Below are positions 16,926 to 29,253 of a stretch of 64,000 nt of DNA, one piece after another. How positions within the stretch are numbered: position 1 is the stretch's first letter; every line of letters starts with the position of its first letter. Under the pieces are notes generated by a model, which saw only the letters and a program-made list of their open reading frames with translations, made no database searches and was not told the DNA's origin. The stretch spans positions 10,472 to 74,471 of the forward strand of contig JAZRHV010000024.1 of NCBI GenBank assembly GCA_045644925.1. The letters run 5' to 3'. This stretch comes from Alistipes sp. (GTDB lineage: Bacteria > Bacteroidota > Bacteroidia > Bacteroidales > Rikenellaceae). A program made the position numbers and the translations under genes.

Positions 16926-18233
16926 ATGAAACAGGATATGATTGTAATTTTGGACTTGGGCAGCCACGAGAATACTGTGGTTGCGCGAGCAATTCGTGCA
17001 TTGGGTGTTTATAGCGAGATTTACCCGCACGACATCACCGTCGAGGAGTTGAAGGCTTTGCCTAATGTGAAGGGTATCGTTATCAACGGTGGTCCCAACA
17101 ATGTTATTGACGGCGTGGAGATTGACGTCAATCACGATATCTATAATGCAGGCTTCCCCGTAATCGCTGCCGGTCACGAGAAGGCTCTCTGCGAGGTTAA
17201 GTTGCCCGCATTTACTTCGGATGAGGAGGCTGCAAAGGTTGCTCTCAAAGATTTCGTCTTCGAGACTTGCAAGGCAGAGGCTAACTGGAATATGGCTAAC
17301 TTCGTGAACGACCAGGTGGAACTCGTTCGTCGTCAGGTGGGCGATAAGAAAGTCTTGTTGGCTCTTTCGGGTGGCGTTGATTCATCGGTTGTGGCTGCGT
17401 TGCTGTTGAAGGCTATCGGCTCGAACCTCGTATGCGTACACGTGAATCACGGTCTTATGCGTAAGGGTGAGTCAGAGAATGTTGTGGAGGTGTTCCGCAA
17501 TCAGCTCTGCGCAAATCTTATCTATGTTGATGCTACCGAGCGTTTCCTTACGAAGTTGGATGGCGTTGCAGATCCTGAGCAGAAGCGAAAGATTATCGGT
17601 GGCGAGTTCATCCGCGTATTCGAGGAGGAGGCGCGCAAGTTGGACGGTATCGACTTCCTCGGTCAGGGTACAATCTATCCCGATATCATCGAGAGCGGTA
17701 CCAAGACTGCGAAGATGGTTAAGTCGCACCACAACGTGGGTGGTCTGCCCGATGATTTGCAGTTCGCACTCGTAGAGCCTTTGAAGCAGCTCTTCAAGGA
17801 TGAGGTGCGTGCTTGTGGTTTGGAGCTCGGTCTGCCTTACGAGATGGTTTACCGTCAGCCCTTCCCCGGTCCGGGTCTTGGTGTTCGCTGCTTGGGTGCT
17901 ATCACTCGCGACCGCTTGGAGGCTGTGCGTGAGTCGGATGCAATCCTCCGTGAGGAGTTTGCAAAGGCTGGCTTGGATAAGAAGGTTTGGCAGTACTTTA
18001 CCGCAGTGCCCGACTTTAAGTCGGTGGGCGTGAAGAACAACGCTCGTTCGTTCGATTGGACAGTAATCATCCGCGCGGTCAATACCGTAGATGCAATGAC
18101 TGCAACTATCGAGCCTCTTGATTGGGATGTATTGCAGCACATCACTGCTCGAATCCTCGCAGAGGTGCCGAACGTAAATCGCGTATGCTACGACCTCTCG
18201 CCGAAGCCGAGCGCAACCATTGAGTGGGAGTAA
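16926..18233 (+). CDS. guaA: GMP synthase with a shortened glutamine-amidotransferase domain
   Basis: SGGVDSS PP-loop, GTIYPD, KSHHNVGGLP, RQPFPGPGL, KPSATIEWE. The N-terminal GATase region is only ~120 aa and lacks GICxG and HPE. Confidence 0.9.
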   Translation: MKQDMIVILDLGSHENTVVARAIRALGVYSEIYPHDITVEELKALPNVKGIVINGGPNNVIDGVEIDVNHDIYNAGFPVIAAGHEKALCEVKLPAFTSDEEAAKVALKDFVFETCKAEANWNMANFVNDQVELVRRQVGDKKVLLALSGGVDSSVVAALLLKAIGSNLVCVHVNHGLMRKGESENVVEVFRNQLCANLIYVDATERFLTKLDGVADPEQKRKIIGGEFIRVFEEEARKLDGIDFLGQGTIYPDIIESGTKTAKMVKSHHNVGGLPDDLQFALVEPLKQLFKDEVRACGLELGLPYEMVYRQPFPGPGLGVRCLGAITRDRLEAVRESDAILREEFAKAGLDKKVWQYFTAVPDFKSVGVKNNARSFDWTVIIRAVNTVDAMTATIEPLDWDVLQHITARILAEVPNVNRVCYDLSPKPSATIEWE

Positions 18234-18663: not shown

Positions 18664-18743
18664 GTTCCTGGTGCTATATAAAGAAAAAAAAAGCTGTCGC
18701 ACTCGAAAGCGCGACAGCCTTAACTAAGCCTTACGGCAAGTTG

Positions 18744-20954
18744 TTACTTCAACTCGAACTGAGCATTGCTGCGGAGATCGCGCGAAGACGAACCTACATA
18801 AGCGGTAAATGTACCCTTCTCGGTTGCCCAATCGTGCTTCTCGGCATCGAAGTAGGCGAGTGCCGAGCGGTCGATCTCGAACTCTACGACACAGCTCTTA
18901 CCAGGCTCCAAGAATACCTTTTTGAACCCTTTGAGCTCGCGTACGGGACGCTCAACGGTCGAAACATCGTCGCCGATGTAGAGCTGAACAACTTCGCCAC
19001 CCTTGACGCTGCCGGTGTTCTTAACCTTTACAGAAGCTGTAATCTTGCCACCCTCTCTCATCGAGCTCTTGTTGAGTGTGAGGTCGCCATACTCGAATGT
19101 CGTATAGCTCAAACCGTGACCGAAGGGGAATGTCGGCTCGCAGTTGTAGAGGTCGGTCCAACGATATCCTACGAAGATATCCTCGACGTAACGCTGCTGG
19201 TAGCGCGGACGCATAATGCCCTCAGGCTGAATGCTGTCGATGATGCCAGGGTATGACTCCTCGCCTGCAACGTGTGCGCCACACTGGTCGAGTGATGCGT
19301 AGTAAGTGAACGGCAATTTACCCGAAGGATTAACCTTGCCCGAAAGTACGTTTGCAAGTGCATTACCGGCCTCCGAGCCGAGATACCAACCCTGAACAAC
19401 AGCATTAGCTCTCTCGATCCACGGCATTGCTACGGCATTACCACTTAAAATTACGACTGCGGTACGGGGGTTGGCCTCGCAGAGAGCCTCGATAACTTCG
19501 TTCTGACCATAGGGTAGTGCGAAATCCTCGCGGTCGCGACCTTCTGCATCCTGACCTTTGCGCTTGTTAAGACCGCCGATGAAGAAAACTACATCAGCTT
19601 CGGCAGCAGCCTTGCGCAACTCGTCAAGCGAAGCAACCTCGTCAGTAGCATTGCGAGAGTAGCCTCTCATATAGGTAACCTTATCCTCGCCATAGAGTGC
19701 TGTAAGACCATCCAAAGGCTTAATCTCGTACTTAACTTTGAGAGAAGAGCTACCACCACCCTTTGTGAGCATATAGTTCGCATTATCGCCTACGACGAGA
19801 ACTTTATTAACCGCCTCGGGTGCTACGGGAAGTACGTTATTGTTGTTTTTGAGCAGGACAATACCATTCTCGGCAATCGTGCGGGCTACGTCTGCGTGAG
19901 CCTCGGTAGCGAACGAGCCGTAGGGACGCTGGCGATTCATCGTGGTACGGAAAATCATACGCAAGACGTTGCGTACCTTCTCGTCTACGAGAGCAGCATC
20001 GCCCTTGCCCTCAGCGATATACTGTTTGAGCGGGTTAGCCATATGGTAGGTGTCGTAGCCGTTGCTTGCACCTGCGTTTGTAGCCAGACCGTCGGTCCAA
20101 GTACCAAATTCGAGGTCAAGACCGTTGTTAAGAGCCTCGGGTGTGTTCTCAACACCGCCCCAATCCGAGATTACGGTACCGTCAAAGCCCCACTCGCCAC
20201 GGAGGATATCAACCAACAGACGCTTGTTGTGGCAGCAATACTGATTCTGGTGGAGGTTGTACGAGCCCATAATCGACCATGCGCCACCCTCCTGAACAGC
20301 AGCCTTGAATGCGGGAAGGTAAATCTCGTAGAGTGCGCGGTCGCTGACCTGTACGTTAATGTCGTGACGCTTGAACTCCTGGTTGTTGAGAGCGTAGTGC
20401 TTTACGCACGATGCAACGCCAATCTTCTGTACCTCCTGGATGTAGGGAACAACCATCTTGCTTGCCAAGTAGGGATCCTCGCCCATATACTCGAAGTTGC
20501 GGCCGTTGAAGGGAGTACGGTAGATATTTACACCGGGGCCGAGCAATACTGTCTTGTTGCGGTAGCGAGCCTCCTCGCCGATAGCCTTACCATACATTGC
20601 CGACATTGCGGGGTCCCACGATGCCGCCAAGCAGGTGAGTGCGGGGAATGCCATACAGCGGTCGTTTGTCCAGTTTGCACCCTTCCACTCGTCCCAGAGT
20701 ACCTCCTCGCGGATACCGTGAGGACCGTCGGTACACCAGACTTCGGGGATGCCAAGACGGGGAACACCCGGAGATGAGAATTTCGACTGAGCGTGAATCA
20801 TCGCAATCTTCTCGTCGAATGTCATACGCGACAAAGCATCCTCTACGCGCTTTTCGATGGGCTTGCTGTCGTCCAGATAGACCGGAATGTCGTTTCCGCA
20901 CGATGCTGCCCAGAGCAGACAGCTCATTGAAAACAGATAGATTAATCTCTTCAT
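18744..20954 (-). CDS. glycoside hydrolase family 3 (beta-glucosidase-like) lipoprotein
   Basis: Lipobox AASC; TDGPHG, GRNFEYMGEDP, VKHY, ISDW nucleophile, FPFGHGLSYT, Fn3-like tail. Confidence 0.93.
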   Translation of the reverse strand: MKRLIYLFSMSCLLWAASCGNDIPVYLDDSKPIEKRVEDALSRMTFDEKIAMIHAQSKFSSPGVPRLGIPEVWCTDGPHGIREEVLWDEWKGANWTNDRCMAFPALTCLAASWDPAMSAMYGKAIGEEARYRNKTVLLGPGVNIYRTPFNGRNFEYMGEDPYLASKMVVPYIQEVQKIGVASCVKHYALNNQEFKRHDINVQVSDRALYEIYLPAFKAAVQEGGAWSIMGSYNLHQNQYCCHNKRLLVDILRGEWGFDGTVISDWGGVENTPEALNNGLDLEFGTWTDGLATNAGASNGYDTYHMANPLKQYIAEGKGDAALVDEKVRNVLRMIFRTTMNRQRPYGSFATEAHADVARTIAENGIVLLKNNNNVLPVAPEAVNKVLVVGDNANYMLTKGGGSSSLKVKYEIKPLDGLTALYGEDKVTYMRGYSRNATDEVASLDELRKAAAEADVVFFIGGLNKRKGQDAEGRDREDFALPYGQNEVIEALCEANPRTAVVILSGNAVAMPWIERANAVVQGWYLGSEAGNALANVLSGKVNPSGKLPFTYYASLDQCGAHVAGEESYPGIIDSIQPEGIMRPRYQQRYVEDIFVGYRWTDLYNCEPTFPFGHGLSYTTFEYGDLTLNKSSMREGGKITASVKVKNTGSVKGGEVVQLYIGDDVSTVERPVRELKGFKKVFLEPGKSCVVEFEIDRSALAYFDAEKHDWATEKGTFTAYVGSSSRDLRSNAQFELK

Positions 20955-20990: not shown

Positions 20991-22058
20991 TTAGTTTAGC
21001 TTTTTGTAGTGGCAGTACATCAACTCTCCGTTATTATCGCGCAGGTGCATACCGCCTCCCTGACAGTACCGCCACATCTTGCACTCGGCACACTCGCCCT
21101 TGTGCGCCCACTCGCGATTGCGGAATGGCTCGAATCGTGTCTGCCACACCTCCCAGAATCGGTCGTGGTAGATATTTCCTTGCGAGTAGTCAGCTCTGAC
21201 GCTTGTACAGCCCGAAATCGAGCCATCGACACGTATAGACGCAACCGAAACGCCTGCGGCACACTGATAGAAGTGGTCGCGCACGTCGGCCTCGTAATCG
21301 CCTAAAAAGCCTTCGCAAGCGTAGCTTACATTAATCTTGCCCTCTTTGCGTGTCTGCTTGATAAAGTCGAGTGCGCAGCGGAACTCCTCGTTTGAGAGAT
21401 TGAGCGCAGGGTCATCTGCTGCACGTCCTGCAGGGAAGATTGAGAATATTCGCCAATGGGTGACACCGTGCGCAATAAGCCACTGCTTGAACTCTTCGAG
21501 CCGTGGAAGCATCGGTGGGGTAAGGCAGGTAATAACGTCGCAGGCAATATCTCGGTATTTGAGAATTTCGGCTATTGCGTCTGTGGCGCAGTCGAAAGCC
21601 TTATCGTTGCGACGGATATGGTTGTGAACGTCTGCAAAGCCGTCGAGGCTGATAGAAATCGAGCGCAGACCTGCCTGCACTAACGATGCAAGACGTTCGG
21701 GAGTGAGCAGAACTCCGTTTGTTACCAAACCCCACGGATATCCTCGACGTGCGACCTCGGAGCCGGCTTGCTCCAAATCTTTGCGCATCAGCACCTCGCC
21801 GCCCGAAAAGACGACCAGGAGCTCGCTCGGATTGACATTCGGGGTAATCTCCTCGTCCAGAACTCGTAAAAAATCCTCTAAGGGCATATCTTTCGCTGCG
21901 GCATCTGCTCGGCAGTCGCTACCACAGTGGCGACAGTCGAGATTGCATCGCAGGGTCATCTCCCAAAAGAGGGTACGCATACGATGTTCCTCAACCGTTT
22001 TGCGGTAGAGATTGCTGAATATGCGTAGTGCTGCTCTTTTGCGGAGTTTGCGGAACAT
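20991..22058 (-). CDS. radical SAM/SPASM enzyme of the rSAM/lipoprotein (TIGR04133-like) type
   Basis: CNLDCRHC cluster motif, FSGGE, VTNG, SISLDG; SPASM C...DG..SGC and CAEC-x5-C. Lies 21 bp downstream of a small lipoprotein gene. Confidence 0.85.
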   Translation of the reverse strand: MFRKLRKRAALRIFSNLYRKTVEEHRMRTLFWEMTLRCNLDCRHCGSDCRADAAAKDMPLEDFLRVLDEEITPNVNPSELLVVFSGGEVLMRKDLEQAGSEVARRGYPWGLVTNGVLLTPERLASLVQAGLRSISISLDGFADVHNHIRRNDKAFDCATDAIAEILKYRDIACDVITCLTPPMLPRLEEFKQWLIAHGVTHWRIFSIFPAGRAADDPALNLSNEEFRCALDFIKQTRKEGKINVSYACEGFLGDYEADVRDHFYQCAAGVSVASIRVDGSISGCTSVRADYSQGNIYHDRFWEVWQTRFEPFRNREWAHKGECAECKMWRYCQGGGMHLRDNNGELMYCHYKKLN

Positions 22059-22079
22059 ACGTGCTATTTAGAACTGGTA

Positions 22080-22310
22080 TTATTGCCCGAATTGGTTTTT
22101 GCTTTCCTGGGCTTGAGATTCGATATTATCGGCTTTTTTGACCTCTGACGATGGCTGTACAGGGCGACGAACACCATACATCACGACGATTGAAGGGACT
22201 GTTTCGGCCTTTTTGCCCTTCTCCTTTTCGCTCTTTGGAGCCTCTTTAACTGTCGAGCAGGCGGTCGAGAAACCGAGCAGTGCCACGAGTGCCAATTTGA
22301 AACTTTTCAT
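22080..22310 (-). CDS. small lipoprotein with MYG motif, probable rSAM substrate (TIGR04134-like)
   Basis: LLGFSTAC lipobox (Cys18), VVMYGV at residues 42-47. TACCTTTG -7 box at 22341-22348 on the minus strand. Confidence 0.75.
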   Translation of the reverse strand: MKSFKLALVALLGFSTACSTVKEAPKSEKEKGKKAETVPSIVVMYGVRRPVQPSSEVKKADNIESQAQESKNQFGQ

Positions 22311-22448
22311 ACCGATATATATTTATATACGTTCTTTGTACAAAGGTAATGATTTTGCTCGAAATCGGAAAATAATCGTAAAAAGTTTTGCAAATCAATT
22401 ACTTTTGTTTATATTTGTTAAACCTAACACTATTAACAACTGAACATT

Positions 22449-22652
22449 ATGACCGGAAAAGTAAAATGGTTCGACGGCAAAAAGGGCTACGGTTTTATTA
22501 TTGCCGAAGATGGAAAAGAGATTTTTGTTCACTATACGGGTATCGTTAAAGAGGGTTTCAAGGCGCTCTCAGAGGGTCGTGCCGTAGAGTTTGAACTTGG
22601 GGACGGAGTACACGGCGTGCAGGCTGTAAATGTCGTCGAAGTGAAAGAATAG
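22449..22652 (+). CDS. cold-shock protein
   Basis: GKVKWFD, KGYGFI, IFVHYTGI; terminator hairpin at 22671-22712. Confidence 0.93.
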   Translation: MTGKVKWFDGKKGYGFIIAEDGKEIFVHYTGIVKEGFKALSEGRAVEFELGDGVHGVQAVNVVEVKE

Positions 22653-22737: not shown

Positions 22738-23646
22738 CTATCGGACGAAATATCCGATGGCAAATACCTCGGTCGAGTTCTCGCCAAGACCTCCGCTCTG
22801 GCTGTTGAGCGCAGTCTGCACTTTTACGAAATCGGCCTGCGTGAGATTTGCCGACTCTCCGTTTGCGGTGACAGCATCGCTCAGTCTGAAACGGTTAAAT
22901 TCCAAGCCTGCGGCAGCTCCTGTGCCACGCATCAGGTCGGTTGTGTTCTCGTTATCGACGTAGCCCCAATCGAATCCTTCTTGAATCCAAATCGTGCCGT
23001 TGAAGTGCGTACGAGGAGCAAGGCGTGTGCCGTGCAGAGTGTAGCACTCTTCCCTGATCCAGGCAGGGTAATAGGAACCGTGCGGGTGCGCTTCAAGGTG
23101 CGCAATCTCGCCACTATTGCCCAAAGAATCCTCCCAACGTATTGGCTGCTTAGGGTAAGTGGCTCTGTGGTAAGTGACTGAGTAGTCGTCTAATACGCCA
23201 TCTTTGCCATATTCTGAGCCTGCAAGCTCATACCACGTGTCATCGGGCTCGCCGTTGCCGTTTTCGTCCTGCATAACCCATACGATGCCGGGCTCGGAAC
23301 TGCCCTCGAAGGGGTTGCCTGCGATGGCGATGTCATAGTCGCCACTGTTGATTACGGGCTTGTCGAAGCCGACCACGATATAGCCTCCAAAACCGCCTAA
23401 CGAGACGAAATTTTTGCGTTCGAGTCGCTCGCGGGCATAATCACACGCTGCTTGCGGAGTAACCTCGCTGCCGTTGAATCCGCTCGTCATCGGGTTGTTG
23501 ATAAATTGACCGGGGGCAGGGGTGTATTCGAGAACATTGGTCGTGAGTAGTAGTTCAGCATCGTCCGTGCCGAATGAATTGGTCATATTGCACGATGTAA
23601 GCATCGCTACAAATAACGCGGGTAATATTTTGACCACCAACCTCAT
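22738..23646 (-). CDS. cell-surface lipoprotein of the type found in Bacteroidetes B12 loci
   Basis: Lipobox LTSC; VLEYTPAPGQFIN, VSLGGFGGYIVVGFD, SEPGIVWVMQDENGNG.PDDTWYEL.GSE, DFVKVQTA. Confidence 0.7.
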   Translation of the reverse strand: MRLVVKILPALFVAMLTSCNMTNSFGTDDAELLLTTNVLEYTPAPGQFINNPMTSGFNGSEVTPQAACDYARERLERKNFVSLGGFGGYIVVGFDKPVINSGDYDIAIAGNPFEGSSEPGIVWVMQDENGNGEPDDTWYELAGSEYGKDGVLDDYSVTYHRATYPKQPIRWEDSLGNSGEIAHLEAHPHGSYYPAWIREECYTLHGTRLAPRTHFNGTIWIQEGFDWGYVDNENTTDLMRGTGAAAGLEFNRFRLSDAVTANGESANLTQADFVKVQTALNSQSGGLGENSTEVFAIGYFVR

Positions 23647-23650
23647 ATCG

Positions 23651-24493
23651 CTACTTCGCAAAGTTGAATTTTAGGTCGTCGATGCAGAAACTGAACGGGC
23701 ACCACATTTCGGGAGCTTTGACCTCCGAGGAGGTGCGCTGCCAATCGGTTGTGAAGCATATTTTATCGACCGTTCCCAGCTTTTCGAGCGAGATACTCTT
23801 CCAGTTGCTTACGATATTGCCGTTATTTGCGAGATAGAACGACATCTCCGATACCTGCTCTCCGTCGAGGTAGCCCATAGCCTTCACGGCCAAGTTTACC
23901 TTCGGGTCGTTCTTCTTAATTTGCAAGTAGGTGTATGTCGCGTTGGCAATCTTGACGCTGACGGGTTTTGCCGGTTTGTCGAACTCGATGGTCGGCAGAT
24001 CGTAAACTCCGTGGCGATCCTGATAGGTGGGCGAAAACCATATCGCATCGTTCGCTATGGCAAATTTATTGTCGCCATTTGTTGCCGAATAGACGCTGTA
24101 TTGGTTGTGGACGGTATCGACCGTCAGTTCGTTATTTGCCGAGATTACAAAGGCGTAGGTCGTGTCGTAGGTGCCGCCCCAAAGTTCCTTGAAATCAGAG
24201 TAGAACGAGCCGAAGTTCGCACCCTGCTCCGAGTAGATAATGTCGTCGAAAAGCATACATCCGACAAGATGATTCGACGCATCCGAGCAGAGCGAAGCTT
24301 GCGCCTTTCCGGCCAAAACATTGGTGTAGGTCATCGGATTATAGCCGTCGAGCGTGAGAGTGCCTAATTCGGCCTCCTCGAAATCTACGGTGTACGCAGT
24401 TTGGATATCCTGCGGAGGATTATCCTGGCACGAAGTACACACCCCAACCGAAATGACTACCGTCATCAACCACCACAAAGAGATTGTTCTCAT
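23651..24493 (-). CDS. DUF4465-like lipoprotein (BtuJ-like cobalamin-binding candidate)
   Basis: Lipobox VCTSC; VKIANATYTY, GNIVSNW..ISL..LG.V.KI.F, P..FCIDD; first gene after the cobalamin riboswitch. Confidence 0.65.
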   Translation of the reverse strand: MRTISLWWLMTVVISVGVCTSCQDNPPQDIQTAYTVDFEEAELGTLTLDGYNPMTYTNVLAGKAQASLCSDASNHLVGCMLFDDIIYSEQGANFGSFYSDFKELWGGTYDTTYAFVISANNELTVDTVHNQYSVYSATNGDNKFAIANDAIWFSPTYQDRHGVYDLPTIEFDKPAKPVSVKIANATYTYLQIKKNDPKVNLAVKAMGYLDGEQVSEMSFYLANNGNIVSNWKSISLEKLGTVDKICFTTDWQRTSSEVKAPEMWCPFSFCIDDLKFNFAK

Positions 24494-24630
24494 AATTACA
24501 TTTGCGAGGCTCCTTACCCCGATTTTGTGCGAAGGAGAATCGAATGGCGGTGGGTTTATGGCTCTGTAAGCACCGAAATATCCGTCAAATTCTGTCCCGT
24601 CCTCCGCAGGTTACAAAATAAATAATGCAA

Positions 24631-24838
24631 AGGCAGGTCTTCTGACTTGTTCCGATTGCGACGCCTTCCCATCCTTACAGCGGACAGTGGCACAAGATTG
24701 TCGCAATTCGTGGGGAAAATCCCCAATGAATATGGCTTTGGGCCTATTCATAGAACTTACAGCAGCGGGAACTGTAACCGACTCTCACGGTTTTCCCTTT
24801 TAATTCCATAGGACGCAAGTCCCTTCGGAAACCAATGC
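24631..24838 (-). ncRNA. cobalamin riboswitch
   Basis: Minus strand reads ...AAAAGGGAAAACCGTGAGAGTCGGTTACAGTTCCCGCTGCTGTAAG...ACTG...GGGAAGGCG...AAGTCAGAAGACCTGCC (B12 box). -7 box TACCTTTG at 24844-24851. Confidence 0.9.
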
Positions 24839-24980
24839 TAACGCAAAGGTATCAAATAATTTGCGATTAACAATACAATGTTAGATATTTTTTTATAACT
24901 TTGCCAGCCTGGGCTATATACTAAGGTATATAGCTCCTATAAATGCCCATTCTGGGCTTAGGTTAGTTAGGAAAATAAAT

Positions 24981-26203
24981 ATGCGAAATTTTCGTAAGTT
25001 GCTGATTATCTTGCTTTTAGCAAGTAGGGGGGGTATTCTCGGGAGTGCCGTACGGAATTTCGTATGGAGTTTCGCGTAAATAATACGACAATCGAGTCGG
25101 AGCGTGGAGACAATGGCGAGCAACTCCGCAAACTCAACGCTTTCCTCGATCAAATCGAAGCCGACACGACTAAAAATATCGTAAATGTTGCCTTCTGTGG
25201 TGCGGCATCTCCCGAAGGAAATACGGAAAATAATCGCCTGTTGGCGCAAGGCCGACTGTCGGCACTCGAACGAGTTGTTCGTGCTAAAATCGAACTACCC
25301 GACAGTATCGTAACCTATAATGATAGTTATATCCCGTGGAGTTATCTCGCTGAGAGAGTCGAAGAGTCTGATCTTCTGCAAAAGGAGGTTATTCTGGGCA
25401 TCATCGGTCGTGAGCCTGTCGTGATAGGCTATATAAACAATCAACTTTTCGATAATCGTGTCGAACTGCTCAAAACACTCGATGATGGGGCGGTGTGGCG
25501 ACAACTCAACGAACGCTATTTCGCGTCTATGCGCAACGCTAGCGTAATTTTTACCACATCCCAATCATCGGTTAAGCCATCCGAAGAGTCTTTGGTTGCG
25601 GATGTTGTCGAGATGCATAAAGCTGAAACTCCGGAGAGGCCAGAGTCGGTAGCGACAGCAGAGGTCGCTGATGATTGGACTCGTCATCTATATCTGAATA
25701 CGAATGCTCTCGGTTGGGCATTGGCTATATTGAATATTGGGGTCGAAATCGACCTGGCAAAGCATTGGTCTTTTGCTATGCCGATATATTATGCGGCGCA
25801 CAACTACTTTGTGCCGACCATTAAATTCCGCACCCTCGCTATCGAGCCGGAGGTGAGATATTGGCTCAAAGAGAATAATATAGGCCTCTTCTTTGGTGCG
25901 CATTTAGGCGTGGCCCAATACAACCTAGCAGTAAATGGCGCAAATCGCTATCAGGACCACAATGGTACATCACCTATGCTGGGCGGTGGAGTTAGCATCG
26001 GTTATCGTTGCGCTATATCGAAGAGTCGTCGTTGGAACGCCGAATTTATTTTAGGTTCGGGCGTTTATAATCTGCATTACGATATTTTTCACAATGATAC
26101 CAACGGAAAATTTATTGATACGCAGCGAAAAACCTATTTTGGAATTGACAACGCTGCTGTCAATATTTCGTACCGTTTTGACTTGAAGCGAGGTAGGCGA
26201 TGA
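24981..26203 (+). CDS. DUF3575/OmpA-like outer-membrane protein heading a fimbrial locus; frameshifted at G7 (25027-25033)
   Basis: Signal-peptide frame from ATG 24981 stops at 25079. The main frame opens exactly at the G tract (in-track ORF 25064-26203). ASPEG and NTNALGW..NIGVE..WS..P..YA...YF..LA.EPEVRYW barrel motifs. Confidence 0.75.
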
Positions 26204-27219
26204 GGATGATGTTGCGCTATATATTTGCGAGTGTGGCATTACTGATGTCGCTTGTGGGTTGTGATATTCACGAATTTCCGATGCAGACACAAAGTGTAGT
26301 CCCGTTTGTGTTGCATCTCAATTTCGACACAAATCTGCCTCTGCACAAGGTGGTGCCGTATGTGCGAAGCGAGTCGAACGATGCAGTGAATGGTGGCGAG
26401 GGTTGTGATGTGCGATACTTGATTAAAGCCTATCGAGCCAATAATGTGGCGGGCGATAACGCTGTTGCCGATGCGACGGTTGTGGTTACTAAGTCCGATA
26501 TCGACAACCTTAATCACTCGGTGAGTATCGAGTTGGAAGAGGGTCAATATACCTTCCGCATTTGGTGCGATTATGTGAAGAGGGGTAGTCGTGACGATAA
26601 CTACTACCTGACGAGCGATTTTGGGGAGATAATCCTTGCAAATCGGGCAGAGCATCAGGGTAGTAACGAATATCGTGACGCTTTTCGCGGAGTTGCGACG
26701 GCAACAGTGTCGGAGACGAGCCGTCAGGCAACTGTCGAGATGCAGCGACCGATGGGTAAGTTCGAATTTATCTCGACCGATATGTCGGAATTTGCAGCTC
26801 GGGTCAAGGCGGATAAAGGAGTGCAAGAGATTGATTGGAACGCATATAGGGTAGTATTTTGTTATGAAATATTTATGCCCTGCTCGTATAACTTGCTAAG
26901 TGATAAGACGGCAGATTCGTGGCAAAAAGTCTACTTCGAGAGTCGTATGACTACCGATGGAGAGGCAGAGGGAGAGATATCGCTGGGATTTGATTATGCC
27001 TTTGTGGACTATCCGAAAACCACGCTGAGCATATCGGTTGCGGTATACGAGCCGAGCGGAGGGTGTGTGGTGATGTCGAAGCCAATAGATGTGCAGATTG
27101 TAAGAGGTGAACTGACAGTGGTTAAGGGCGATTTCTTGACATCGAAGGGCGCGAGTAGCTCGGATGGGGTAGCGATAAACCCAGGTTACGAAGGCGAGGA
27201 TTACAATGTGGAGATTTAG
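26200..27219 (+). CDS. type V fimbria minor/anchor-like lipoprotein (Mfa2/FimB- or DUF6562-like)
   Basis: Lipobox LVGC-DIHEFP, RDAFRG, MQRPMGK, TVVKGDFLT; ATGA overlap with the upstream gene. Confidence 0.6.
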   Translation: MRMMLRYIFASVALLMSLVGCDIHEFPMQTQSVVPFVLHLNFDTNLPLHKVVPYVRSESNDAVNGGEGCDVRYLIKAYRANNVAGDNAVADATVVVTKSDIDNLNHSVSIELEEGQYTFRIWCDYVKRGSRDDNYYLTSDFGEIILANRAEHQGSNEYRDAFRGVATATVSETSRQATVEMQRPMGKFEFISTDMSEFAARVKADKGVQEIDWNAYRVVFCYEIFMPCSYNLLSDKTADSWQKVYFESRMTTDGEAEGEISLGFDYAFVDYPKTTLSISVAVYEPSGGCVVMSKPIDVQIVRGELTVVKGDFLTSKGASSSDGVAINPGYEGEDYNVEI

Positions 27220-27261
27220 ATAAGAAACAACAATTAACACAATTAATAACTTAAACTTTTT

Positions 27262-29253
27262 ATGATGAAAAAACTTTTCTTTTTGATGAGCGCAATGATG
27301 GTTGTCTTTGCCTCGTCGTGTGAGAGCGGATTTGATGGAAAAGAGTCTGCTGGAAAGGCATTGGTTTCGTGCAATGTAGAGATGCCGAAAATCGCAAGCC
27401 GTGCATATAGCGACGGTATGTCTGCAAATGTATTGCAGTATGCTGTTTATGACGCTGCGGGCAACGAGCTGACCGACTTGACCGTAACCGATGGCGAAAT
27501 CTATGGCTCGACTGCTGTTAATTTCGAGCTCGTTGTAGGTCAGACCTACTCGGTAATCTTCTGGGCTGCTGCCGAGGGTGCTCCCTATGCAGTAAACTTC
27601 GCGGACAAGAGTATGACCGTAGATTACACCAATGTAAAGTGTAATGCAGAGGGTTATGATGCCTTCTACAAGTGCGTCGAGTTCGTCGTTACAGGCTCAA
27701 TGTCGATGGATGTAGAGTTGCGTCGTCCTTTTGCTCAGCTCAACATCGGTACGAGCGACTACGTTGCAGCGGCAAAGGCTGGCTACGTTCCTACAAAGTC
27801 GTGGGTAAAGGTTCCGGTCTACACAACTCTTAACTTGCAGGATGGCTCGGTTTCGGGTCAGAGTGCTCAGGAGTTTGGCTTTGCCGAGATTAACAAGGGC
27901 GAGACTTTCCCCGTTGCCGGCTATGACTACCTCGCAATGAACTATTTGTTGGTTTCGGCTGATAAGGAGGTTGTCGAGGTTGAGTTTGCATATACAGCGA
28001 CCGATGAGAGCGCTGCCGTATCGCGTGTCGTAGGCTCGGTGCCTGTGCAGCGTAACCACCGTACCAATATCTATGGTAAACTCTTTACCACGACTGTTGA
28101 TGTGCAAGTCGTAATCGTGCCGGATTATGACGACGAGGATCTCAATAAGGAGGTTGTTGATGCCGTAGAGATTGCTCCCGGCGTATTGTACAATGAGGCT
28201 AGTGCAACATATATGCTCACTAATAAGCAGGGTATTGAGTGGTTGAGAGATGAGGTAAACAACGGCAATACATTTGAGGGTAAAATCGTAACATTGACCG
28301 ACGATATCGATGTAGGTATTGAATACGACGATAATGGCGAGCGCATCTCTTTCGCTACTATCGGAACTTGTAGCAAGAGCGTGAAGAAGCCTTTTAAGGG
28401 TACTTTTGACGGTGATGGTCACTCTATTAAGAATATCTATCAGAATGGTTGGGATTTCGGCTATGAGTATGGCTCTTGGGGATCTGTCGGTTTGTTTGGT
28501 AAACTCGAAGATGCAACCGTTAAGAATGTAACCCTCGAAGGCTTCGAATTGCGTATTGAGGGTGGTAATGTCGGCGGTATCACCGGTAATGCCGCAGGTC
28601 ACTGCGTATTCGAGAATATTACCGTGAAGAACTCGACATTCTGCTCTTACAACAATGGCGTTGCAGGTATTCTCGGTTGGCCCGAGGCTGGTAACTACCT
28701 CTTCAAGAATATCAAGATTGAGAGCGATGTAACTATCGCTGCATTCTGGGGCACCTATGACGCATCTCTTGCGGGTGTTATGGCAGAGGCATACACCGAT
28801 GGTACCTATCATTTCGAGGATATCGAGATTAGCTGCCGACTCGACGCTTTCAACGATGTTATCTCGAACTACAAGTGGTACAACTATCGCCTTAGCGGTA
28901 TGCTCGTAGGTAATGTTGAGACTACAACTACTACCGCAGAGGGTCGCATAATTCCAGACCCCGCATGTTGCAACATCACTTGCAAGAATGTGGTTGTGAA
29001 CTATGGCGACTGGATGAACTATCACTACTGCGTGCCTAACAGCAACAACCAGGGCAACTATCGTGTAGAGCCGGGCTATTCGTATGGCGGTATTCCGGCA
29101 GACCACGATCACACAACTTGCCAGAATGGCGAATGCTGCAATCAACTTCTTCCATTCGACCAGCTCTTTGGTGGTGGTAAGGGTGTTGTGGGTCTTGCAA
29201 CATACGATGGCGTAACTGTAAACTACCCCGCGTCGTACACTCAGGGTAACTAA
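27262..29253 (+). CDS. type V fimbrial-like lipoprotein (DUF6562-like N-terminus, large GLUG-like C-terminal domain)
   Basis: Lipobox FASSC, LRRPFAQLNIGT, VPVQRNHRTNIYGKL, then FKGTFDGDGH.I.N, GLFG.L..ATV.N and VGGITG repeats. Confidence 0.65.
   Translation: MMKKLFFLMSAMMVVFASSCESGFDGKESAGKALVSCNVEMPKIASRAYSDGMSANVLQYAVYDAAGNELTDLTVTDGEIYGSTAVNFELVVGQTYSVIFWAAAEGAPYAVNFADKSMTVDYTNVKCNAEGYDAFYKCVEFVVTGSMSMDVELRRPFAQLNIGTSDYVAAAKAGYVPTKSWVKVPVYTTLNLQDGSVSGQSAQEFGFAEINKGETFPVAGYDYLAMNYLLVSADKEVVEVEFAYTATDESAAVSRVVGSVPVQRNHRTNIYGKLFTTTVDVQVVIVPDYDDEDLNKEVVDAVEIAPGVLYNEASATYMLTNKQGIEWLRDEVNNGNTFEGKIVTLTDDIDVGIEYDDNGERISFATIGTCSKSVKKPFKGTFDGDGHSIKNIYQNGWDFGYEYGSWGSVGLFGKLEDATVKNVTLEGFELRIEGGNVGGITGNAAGHCVFENITVKNSTFCSYNNGVAGILGWPEAGNYLFKNIKIESDVTIAAFWGTYDASLAGVMAEAYTDGTYHFEDIEISCRLDAFNDVISNYKWYNYRLSGMLVGNVETTTTTAEGRIIPDPACCNITCKNVVVNYGDWMNYHYCVPNSNNQGNYRVEPGYSYGGIPADHDHTTCQNGECCNQLLPFDQLFGGGKGVVGLATYDGVTVNYPASYTQGN

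Follow-up and report, generated by a model that had tools for sequence, protein, structure and literature searches.

A short lipopeptide family with a conserved Tyr-Gly site, paired with TIGR04133 radical SAM enzymes in Bacteroidales: a candidate system for tyramine splicing

Introduction

What does a radical SAM (S-adenosylmethionine) enzyme act on when its gene follows that of a lipoprotein consisting of little more than a lipid anchor and a Tyr-Gly motif? The question is raised by a 64,000-nucleotide stretch of Alistipes sp. DNA (contig JAZRHV010000024.1, positions 10,472 to 74,471), the whole of which is called the window below. There, the open reading frame (ORF) of a 76-residue peptide with a lipobox lies directly upstream of a gene for a radical SAM/SPASM enzyme. 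An earlier note on this DNA had read the pair as a splicease and its substrate, with the enzyme excising a tyramine unit from the peptide backbone.

The pairing of such enzymes with lipoproteins is already catalogued, as families TIGR04133 (enzyme) and TIGR04134 (lipoprotein), without an assigned function. A full-text search of the literature found no relevant account of this system; the work of Scott et al. 2022 (Chem) lay outside that search and may list the family. In it, 939 splicease systems were reportedly predicted from YG-rich neighbours of SPASM enzymes, and 27 spliceases tested. What is new here is the observation that a Tyr-Gly (YG) site and a signal peptide with the motif L-L-G-F (LLGF) are the only features common to all partners of the enzyme. 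New are also the reduced, derived status of a family of short partners, the link to known splice sites, and a maturation logic that joins RiPPs (ribosomally synthesised and post-translationally modified peptides) to lipoproteins by way of a radical SAM enzyme. Judging from the sequences, the enzyme very probably modifies the YG site of the pre-lipoprotein. Whether the locus is a two-gene RiPP-lipoprotein module with tyramine excision as its chemistry appears to us an evenly balanced question.

A family of short lipopeptides built around a Tyr-Gly site

The precursor gene (22080-22310, minus strand) encodes the peptide MKSFKLALVALLGFSTA-C18-STVKEAPKSEKEKGKKAETVPS-IVVM44Y45G46VRRP50-VQPSSEVKKADNIESQAQESKNQFGQ, in which a signal peptide and lipobox are followed by a charged linker rich in Lys and Glu, a 12-residue core and a variable, low-complexity tail of 26 residues. 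The signal peptide (residues 1-17, MKSFKLALVALLGFSTA) and the lipobox Cys18 are encoded at 22257-22310 (minus strand), with the L-L-G-F codons at 22269-22280. A basic n-region and a hydrophobic h-region precede the S-T-A-C of the lipobox, and this context for signal peptidase II (SPII) was judged by eye. The core, P39-S-I-V-V-M-Y-G-V-R-R-P50 (22161-22196, minus strand), corresponds to the family consensus and has a proline at each end. Within it, M44-Y45-G46 (codons ATG TAT GGT, 22173-22181, minus strand) is the modification site predicted from the sequence and its conservation in the family.

The window peptide has no match in Pfam or NCBIfam. A sequence search nevertheless returned 57 homologues with E-values down to 3e-34, and a profile search of 1.84 billion representatives gave 207 clusters at 50% identity (E<=1e-3), with lengths of 72-171 aa. 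In the alignment of homologues, L12, G13, F14, A17, C18, S19, Y45, G46 and P50 are invariant. The signal peptide and the core are conserved, while the linker and the tail vary. This pattern, together with the number of homologues and clusters, argues that the small ORF is a genuine gene and not a chance ORF.

Conservation of the YG in homologous peptides had been chosen beforehand as the point on which the splicing proposal could fail. The proposal clearly withstands this check: the YG is kept in 194 of 196 short peptides, and the exceptions are one MYC variant and one frameshifted sequence. The 196 sequences contain 205 core sites with the consensus P-R-I-V-V-(M/L)-Y-G-V-R-x-P, and 16 of the proteins contain the core two or three times. 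At position -1, Met is found at 184 of the 205 sites and Leu at 17 (M or L at 201); position +2 is Val at 191 sites, and position +5 is Pro at 194. The distance from the lipobox Cys to the Tyr ranges from 24 to 113 residues across the short family. Since the YG core is kept while its flanks and the Cys-Tyr spacing are free to vary, the conservation pattern is that expected of a tethered recognition or modification site rather than of a folded domain.

Pairing with the enzyme, and two classes of partners

Five diverse homologues of the peptide are all encoded 3-13 bp upstream of a Radical_SAM/SPASM gene, and the gaps between partner and enzyme genes are 3-21 bp overall. From the enzyme side, a metagenome scan gave more than 500 matches to TIGR04133, among which 80 loci were analysed. 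An upstream lipobox ORF with a YG was present in 81 of the 85 loci that had a recognisable radical SAM gene, and the other four are contig ends or contain a frameshift. The pairing of the TIGR04133 enzyme with an upstream YG lipoprotein is thus essentially obligatory.

The partners fall into a short and a long class. Long partners (117-280 aa) carry the site (E/M/C)-Y-G-(T/S/A)-P 6-15 residues past the lipobox Cys, followed by a beta-sandwich with the signature YTVKGxVxDxxGxPIxGIxV, often with a second MYG. They are the TIGR04134 proteins proper and score 89-123 bits with that model (cutoff 39.8). No TIGR04134 match, even at E<=10, was obtained for the window peptide or for 51 relatives. The earlier note had related pairs of this kind to TIGR04133/TIGR04134; this holds for the enzyme (see below) and fails for the peptide. 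The short peptides are a large group outside TIGR04134, newly recognised here.

What the two classes have in common is only the YG(x)P site and the signal peptide, in which L-L-G-F stands just before the lipobox in 213 of 219 short and 18 of 21 long partners. Compared with the TIGR04134 system, the window partner has 76 residues and no beta-sandwich; its YG lies farther from the Cys (27 residues, against 6-15 in long partners), the residues after the Cys (STVK) are not acidic, and a divergent cold-shock-domain (CSD) gene is tied to the short form.

In a neighbour-joining tree of the enzymes, rooted on a PlpX homologue and calculated without bootstrap, the clades sort by the type of partner, and the enzymes with short partners form one clade nested among those with long partners. 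This nesting and the absence of the beta-sandwich suggest that the short peptide is a derived, reduced form of the TIGR04134 lipoproteins of ~150 residues, in agreement with the earlier description of the window peptide as a reduced substrate. Some partners have a different build. The one at locus L057, upstream of the radical SAM gene at about 2980, has the core twice in full (MLMYGVPMPDG and SVMYGVPFPDG), with a segment of the type FPDGSLVKP(I/V)SEEEA(K/Q)RLI after either copy; the cores of the partners at L045 and L060 read MYGVPFPDG and MYGPP. By their build, these proteins look intermediate between the short and the long form, or expanded.

The enzyme and its likeness to spliceases

The enzyme gene (20991-22058, minus strand, 355 aa) was classified by HMM (hidden Markov model) and Pfam searches. 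Its product is a bona fide member of TIGR04133 (578.9 bits, with a cutoff of 425, and E 3e-174; the match spans 5-354 of 355 aa), with Pfam scores of 65.8 bits for Radical_SAM and 31.4 bits for SPASM. The family has the status "hypoth_equivalog", and JGI lists a cluster mate of the window enzyme as "radical SAM enzyme (rSAM/lipoprotein system)". The CX3CX2C radical SAM motif is formed by C38/C42/C45. The invariant cysteines are 38/42/45, 49, 178, 248, 266, 284, 323, 326, 332 and 349, of which the last seven (248, 266, 284, 323, 326, 332 and 349) belong to the SPASM region. The enzyme has neither a signal peptide nor an RRE (RiPP recognition element) domain, and its N-terminus contains a conserved basic segment, LRKRxaL..F.

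Natural sites of the splicease PlpXY are MYG and LYG, and the spliceotide precursors known so far are all defined by X-Y-G (PMC10533398). The PlpA3 precursor (sequence from the supplement of PMC10533398) has the core AVAAMYGVVFP, which has V-x-x-M-Y-G-V-x-x-P in common with the window core SIVVMYGVRRP. With PlpA3 as a query, a PlpX-family locus, L001, was retrieved from a Xenococcaceae metagenome-assembled genome. There, a Nif11-type precursor (1321-1599, ending in ...GGRFNVIYGSPWKPWPWPF) adjoins a true TIGR04103 member (1708-2937, 806.7 bits). This cyanobacterial precursor has IYGSP, akin to the (E/M)YG(T/S)P of the long partners. No PlpY-like ORF of at least 70 aa is present in the 8 kb listed for L001. 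The second match of the PlpA3 scan, L002, was discarded, as it has a Nif11-like peptide without YG and no radical SAM gene.

The window enzyme aligns with the TIGR04103 enzyme of L001 over its full length (27% identity, E 2e-27), and in the reverse comparison the PlpX homologue matches the TIGR04133 model at 143 bits. Solved SPASM enzymes match the window enzyme far less, with 45 bits for BlsE as the best and 36.7 bits for CteB. Moreover, there is no universally conserved second residue in the partners that could serve as a cross-link partner. On these grounds, namely the splice-site match, the full-length alignment, the reciprocal match and the lack of a conserved cross-link partner, tyramine excision appears to be the favoured chemistry.

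The layout also resembles that of spliceases. In the type I systems of Pleurocapsa (PlpX/PlpY-PlpA, PcpXY), a radical SAM/SPASM enzyme likewise stands beside an X-Y-G precursor with Met or Leu as X, and the type II enzymes RhaX/RasX/RcsX of Rheinheimera have a binary arrangement without Y protein, as in the window. Like spliceotide precursors, some relatives of the window peptide have multiple sites. There are also differences. The window enzyme falls outside TIGR04103/IPR026482, its precursor has a Sec/SPII lipoprotein signal instead of a Nif11- or NHLP-type leader, the module lacks a protease or exporter, and its hosts are gut Bacteroidales.

Several results weigh against splicing, or against the role proposed for its product below. 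The window enzyme reaches only 104.6 bits with TIGR04103, the PlpX family, against a cutoff of 725. AhbD (116 bits), NirJ2 (114.8) and NirJ (104.5) score as well, and TIGR03913 and TIGR04053 are similar; since TIGR03913, AhbD, NirJ2 and TIGR04053 are about equal to the splicease family, relatedness does not single out splicing. The window enzyme lacks the fourth (last) Cys of the CX2CX5CX3C pattern present in the PlpX homologue and has the extra invariant Cys49, Cys178 and Cys248, which implies that its auxiliary clusters are ligated differently. No gene for a Y-type activator is found within ~8 kb, and no protease is conserved near the module. Finally, transcript support comes from one metatranscriptome run with a single 167-nt contig on the radical SAM gene, too little to establish an operon.

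The lack of a Y protein has precedent. Spliceases require an activating helix, which comes either from the Y protein or from the leader, and binary spliceases without Y protein exist (PMC11414181). In the TIGR04133 system, this helix could be the LLGF helix of the signal peptide or the LRKRxaL..F segment at the N-terminus of the enzyme. Because LLGF is nearly invariant in two otherwise unrelated partner classes, we infer that the signal peptide may double as the leader and activating helix of the enzyme.

A proposed route to a lipid-anchored product

The enzyme is expected to be cytoplasmic, as it has no signal peptide and needs Fe-S clusters and SAM, and its partner is expected to be exported. 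The two would therefore meet only before export, as enzyme and substrate. In the proposed scheme, the 76-residue precursor would be synthesised in the cytoplasm, and the TIGR04133 enzyme would bind it there through the LLGF signal-peptide helix, the 12-residue core, or both, and act on Tyr45 of the M-Y-G site. Export by Sec would follow, with diacylglycerylation of Cys18 by Lgt, cleavage by signal peptidase II (LspA), and N-acylation. The earlier note had found no RRE/PqqD gene, protease or exporter nearby, and domain annotation of the neighbours likewise reveals no RRE/PqqD gene, protease, exporter or transporter within ~8 kb of the module. A route in which Sec, Lgt, LspA and the N-acyltransferase carry out the maturation would account for the lack of a dedicated protease and exporter.

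The predicted reaction is that of a splicease, with removal of a tyramine equivalent (C8H9NO, -135.07 Da). It would join C1 of Met44 to the former C1 of Tyr45 and thus create an alpha-keto-beta-amino (ketoamide) residue. Cleavage before Cys18 would leave a triacylated lipopeptide of 59 residues, and splicing would turn its core into ...P-S-I-V-V-[alpha-keto-beta-Met]-G-V-R-R-P... on a tether of ~25 residues. Spliceotide ketoamides derived from Met or Leu inhibit elastase, chymotrypsin and cathepsin B, and the unspliced peptides are inactive (PMC11626197). A plausible role of the lipopeptide is to mimic a protease substrate and to inhibit serine or cysteine proteases of the cell envelope in a covalent, reversible manner, and the proline-bracketed, beta-branched core would look like the form expected of a substrate-like inhibitor loop.

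The location of the product deserves separate comment, because the earlier note had called it a surface lipoprotein. Acidic stretches are a signature of surface or outer membrane vesicle lipoproteins in Bacteroides (PMC13056109). Long partners are rich in Asp and Glu immediately past the Cys, and a surface location is plausible for TIGR04134 proteins. In the short family, Cys18 is followed by C-S-T-V-K-(N/E)-A-P, without an acidic residue among the next four; in the stretch C-S-T-V-K-E of the window peptide, Glu comes only at +6. A surface location of the window peptide is thus not supported by its sequence.

Taken to its full extent, the proposal is that gut and rumen Bacteroidales widely make lipid-anchored, spliced ketoamide peptides and proteins, that the LLGF signal helix is the leader that activates the splicease, and that the 76-residue form is a minimised, tethered inhibitor, whose 12-residue loop between two prolines would present a Met-derived alpha-ketoamide to serine or cysteine proteases of the host or of competitors at the cell envelope. 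We put this forward tentatively, as a scenario with distinctly less than an even chance of being right.

Alternative explanations

The enzyme might alter the YG site by a radical reaction other than splicing. One candidate is a three-residue cyclophane across Tyr-Gly-X, in which, as in triceptides, a C-C bond would link the Tyr ring with C-beta of the residue at +2. Others are epimerisation, either of the Tyr to its D form or of a Val or Ile beside it, and beta-oxidation or dehydrogenation of the Tyr. SPASM enzymes catalyse many reactions on peptides, and the window enzyme has weaker matches to YhhB (55.7 bits), WgkB (69) and DynA (59.8). Its pattern of auxiliary-cluster cysteines, different from that of the PlpX homologue, would be in keeping with another chemistry, and the core contains many beta-branched residues of the kind on which radical epimerases act. 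A cyclophane would be compatible with a +2 residue that always has a C-beta (V/T/S/A/C); however, this position varies widely, Ala included, and the only universally conserved residues are the Tyr, the Gly and a nearby Pro. The match to natural splice sites is also specific, both in the M/L-Y-G itself and in the MYGVxxP of PlpA3, and the full-length similarity to the splicease family (104.6 bits, and 143 bits in reverse) exceeds that to the maturases for cyclophanes and cross-links. We regard a different radical reaction at the YG site as possible but rather unlikely.

More radical departures would deny the peptide, or its Tyr, the role of the target. The enzyme could act on a small molecule or cofactor, such as a tetrapyrrole, or on another protein, with the lipoprotein merely co-transcribed, for example as a carrier or receptor of the product. 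The scores of AhbD, NirJ2 and NirJ, as high as that of the splicease family, and the hypothetical status of TIGR04133 speak for such a role. The co-occurrence of enzyme and YG partner is nearly perfect, however, and the enzymes sort by partner type. A short invariant motif in otherwise freely evolving, disordered peptides, with duplicated core copies in some partners, is again what a substrate would show; no heme or tetrapyrrole genes lie within ~8 kb, and the location of enzyme and mature lipoprotein in different compartments argues against a functional complex. A role of the peptide outside the substrate is therefore improbable. Even less credit can be given to a thioether of the sactipeptide or ranthipeptide type formed by Cys18 in place of, or in addition to, its lipidation. 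In CteB-like SPASM enzymes, an auxiliary cluster binds the substrate Cys. CteB ranks among the closest solved structures, the window enzyme is missing one of the canonical Cys ligands of SPASM, which recalls enzymes whose coordination site is open, and Cys18 is invariant. The last point is accounted for by the lipobox in its textbook SPII context. The spacing of Cys and Tyr varies from 24 to 113 residues and long partners place the YG 6-15 residues after the Cys, while most partners have no other Cys. In view of the SPII context and the variable spacing, Cys18 as a thioether donor was considered and rejected as highly improbable.

Relation to other systems, and implications

The closest parallel to the proposed maturation route is found among the DAG-RiPPs. 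For DybA/DybH it has been demonstrated that lipobox RiPP precursors are modified in the cytoplasm and then enter the lipoprotein pathway (PMC13056109). Such systems share with the window module an SPII signal in the place of a leader, an adjacent cytoplasmic enzyme, a cluster of two genes and an origin in Bacteroidota (PMC13056109). The window module fits this layout, with an SPII/lipobox precursor beside a modifying enzyme and no dedicated protease or exporter nearby. In contrast, the DAG-RiPP enzyme is an MNIO that acts on a C-terminal CPxCGxG, whereas the window has a radical SAM/SPASM enzyme and an internal YG. The survey that defined DAG-RiPPs mined MNIO neighbourhoods only (PMC13056109).

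The kinship of the window enzyme to AhbD, NirJ, TIGR04053, TIGR03913 and the spliceases was gauged by reciprocal HMM scores. The NCBIfam families closest to the window enzyme, and also to the PlpX homologue, are AhbD, NirJ, TIGR04053 and TIGR03913. All belong to the same sub-branch of SPASM enzymes, and every score falls well short of its family cutoff. Tetrapyrroles are the substrates of AhbD and NirJ, and neither enzyme has a lipobox peptide as its partner. With the TIGR04133/TIGR04134 system, the window module shares the enzyme family and the upstream partner with LLGF-lipobox and YG.

The system is abundant in Bacteroidota, as judged from the TIGR04133 matches in a single metagenome scan and from the number of peptide clusters. 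The hypothesis that it offers is sharply testable: a single enzyme is predicted to cause a loss of 135 Da at a single invariant Tyr-Gly site, and a minimal substrate, with 59 residues in its mature form, occurs in nature. If the proposal is true, tyramine splicing would extend to dominant gut commensals. For spliceotides, a cellular location, in the envelope on a lipid anchor, and a native route of maturation would be defined for the first time. The module would be the first DAG-RiPP of the radical SAM type and would add radical SAM chemistry to the RiPP-lipoprotein paradigm. Tethered ketoamide inhibitors in gut bacteria would bear on the interactions between host proteases and the microbiota, and a compact pair of splice tag and leader could be useful in protein engineering.

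Gene neighbourhood and other observations in the window

The earlier note had placed the lipobox peptide, the radical SAM/SPASM enzyme and a GH3 lipoprotein in a row, with gaps of 21 and 36 bp, and the ORF map and the domain annotation bear this out. On the minus strand, 21 bp separate the stop of the peptide gene from the radical SAM gene, and 36 bp lie between the latter and the gene for a GH3 glycosidase lipoprotein (18744-20954, minus strand, 736 aa). The GH3 product has a lipobox-like N-terminus, MKRLIYLFSMSCLLWAASC, and Glyco_hydro_3, Glyco_hydro_3_C and Fn3-like domains in Pfam. A consensus for Bacteroides promoters is established, with a -7 box of the type TAnnTTTG. Such a box, TACCTTTG (22341-22348, minus strand), is found 31 nt before the start codon of the peptide gene and, from this consensus, is the putative promoter of the peptide gene. 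Another copy (22410-22417, plus strand) precedes the CSD gene. In the whole window, TAnnTTTG occurs 75 times where 35.6 occurrences are expected, and none of 100 shuffles reached 75; the excess is consistent with a Bacteroidota origin of the window.

No terminator-like site was found in the 36-bp gap between the radical SAM and GH3 genes, and the strongest hairpin with a T-run (18690-18721, minus strand) comes just after GH3. Given this arrangement and the upstream -7 box, the GH3 gene is probably co-transcribed with the peptide and radical SAM genes in the window. GH3 follows the radical SAM gene in the close relatives L091, L093 and L094, and does not do so in L003-L008 and L089-L090. As the adjacency is limited to close relatives, GH3 was rejected as a functional partner or conserved member of the module.

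The CSD gene (22449-22652, plus strand; CSD 82 bits) diverges from the peptide gene and shares a 138-bp intergenic region with it. A divergent CSD gene is found upstream in 22 of 27 distinct loci of the short type, against 1 of 17 of the long type; the arrangement was also noted at L006-L008 and L089-L094. This linkage may reflect inherited synteny or co-regulation. The genes within ~8 kb have housekeeping or otherwise unrelated roles and encode GlnRS, MDH, IMPDH, GuaA, tRNA-Pro, the cold-shock-domain protein, DUF4465, DUF3575 and DUF6562 proteins. The GC content around the locus is flat at ~0.5, and the window sequence is found in gut and bovine-gut metagenomes.

Beyond the CSD gene, a cobalamin riboswitch (82.3 bits, 24615-24851, minus strand) lies upstream of the DUF4465 gene (23651-24493, minus strand), which is followed downstream by a gene for a 307-residue lipoprotein without a Pfam match (22738-23661, minus strand). 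The set looks like a B12-regulated surface or uptake operon that ends beside the CSD gene. The DUF4465 gene, the next gene and the CSD gene are syntenic in L091, too. On the other side of the module, the GMP synthase gene (16926-18233, plus strand) encodes only 435 aa, and its glutamine amidotransferase match covers profile positions 1-76 of 190 only, so that this half of the protein appears truncated or degenerate. Finally, the run of genes at 25064-29253 (plus strand), with a DUF3575 gene (379 aa) and two DUF6562 genes (339 and 663 aa), looks like an outer-membrane or fimbria-like cluster of Bacteroidota.

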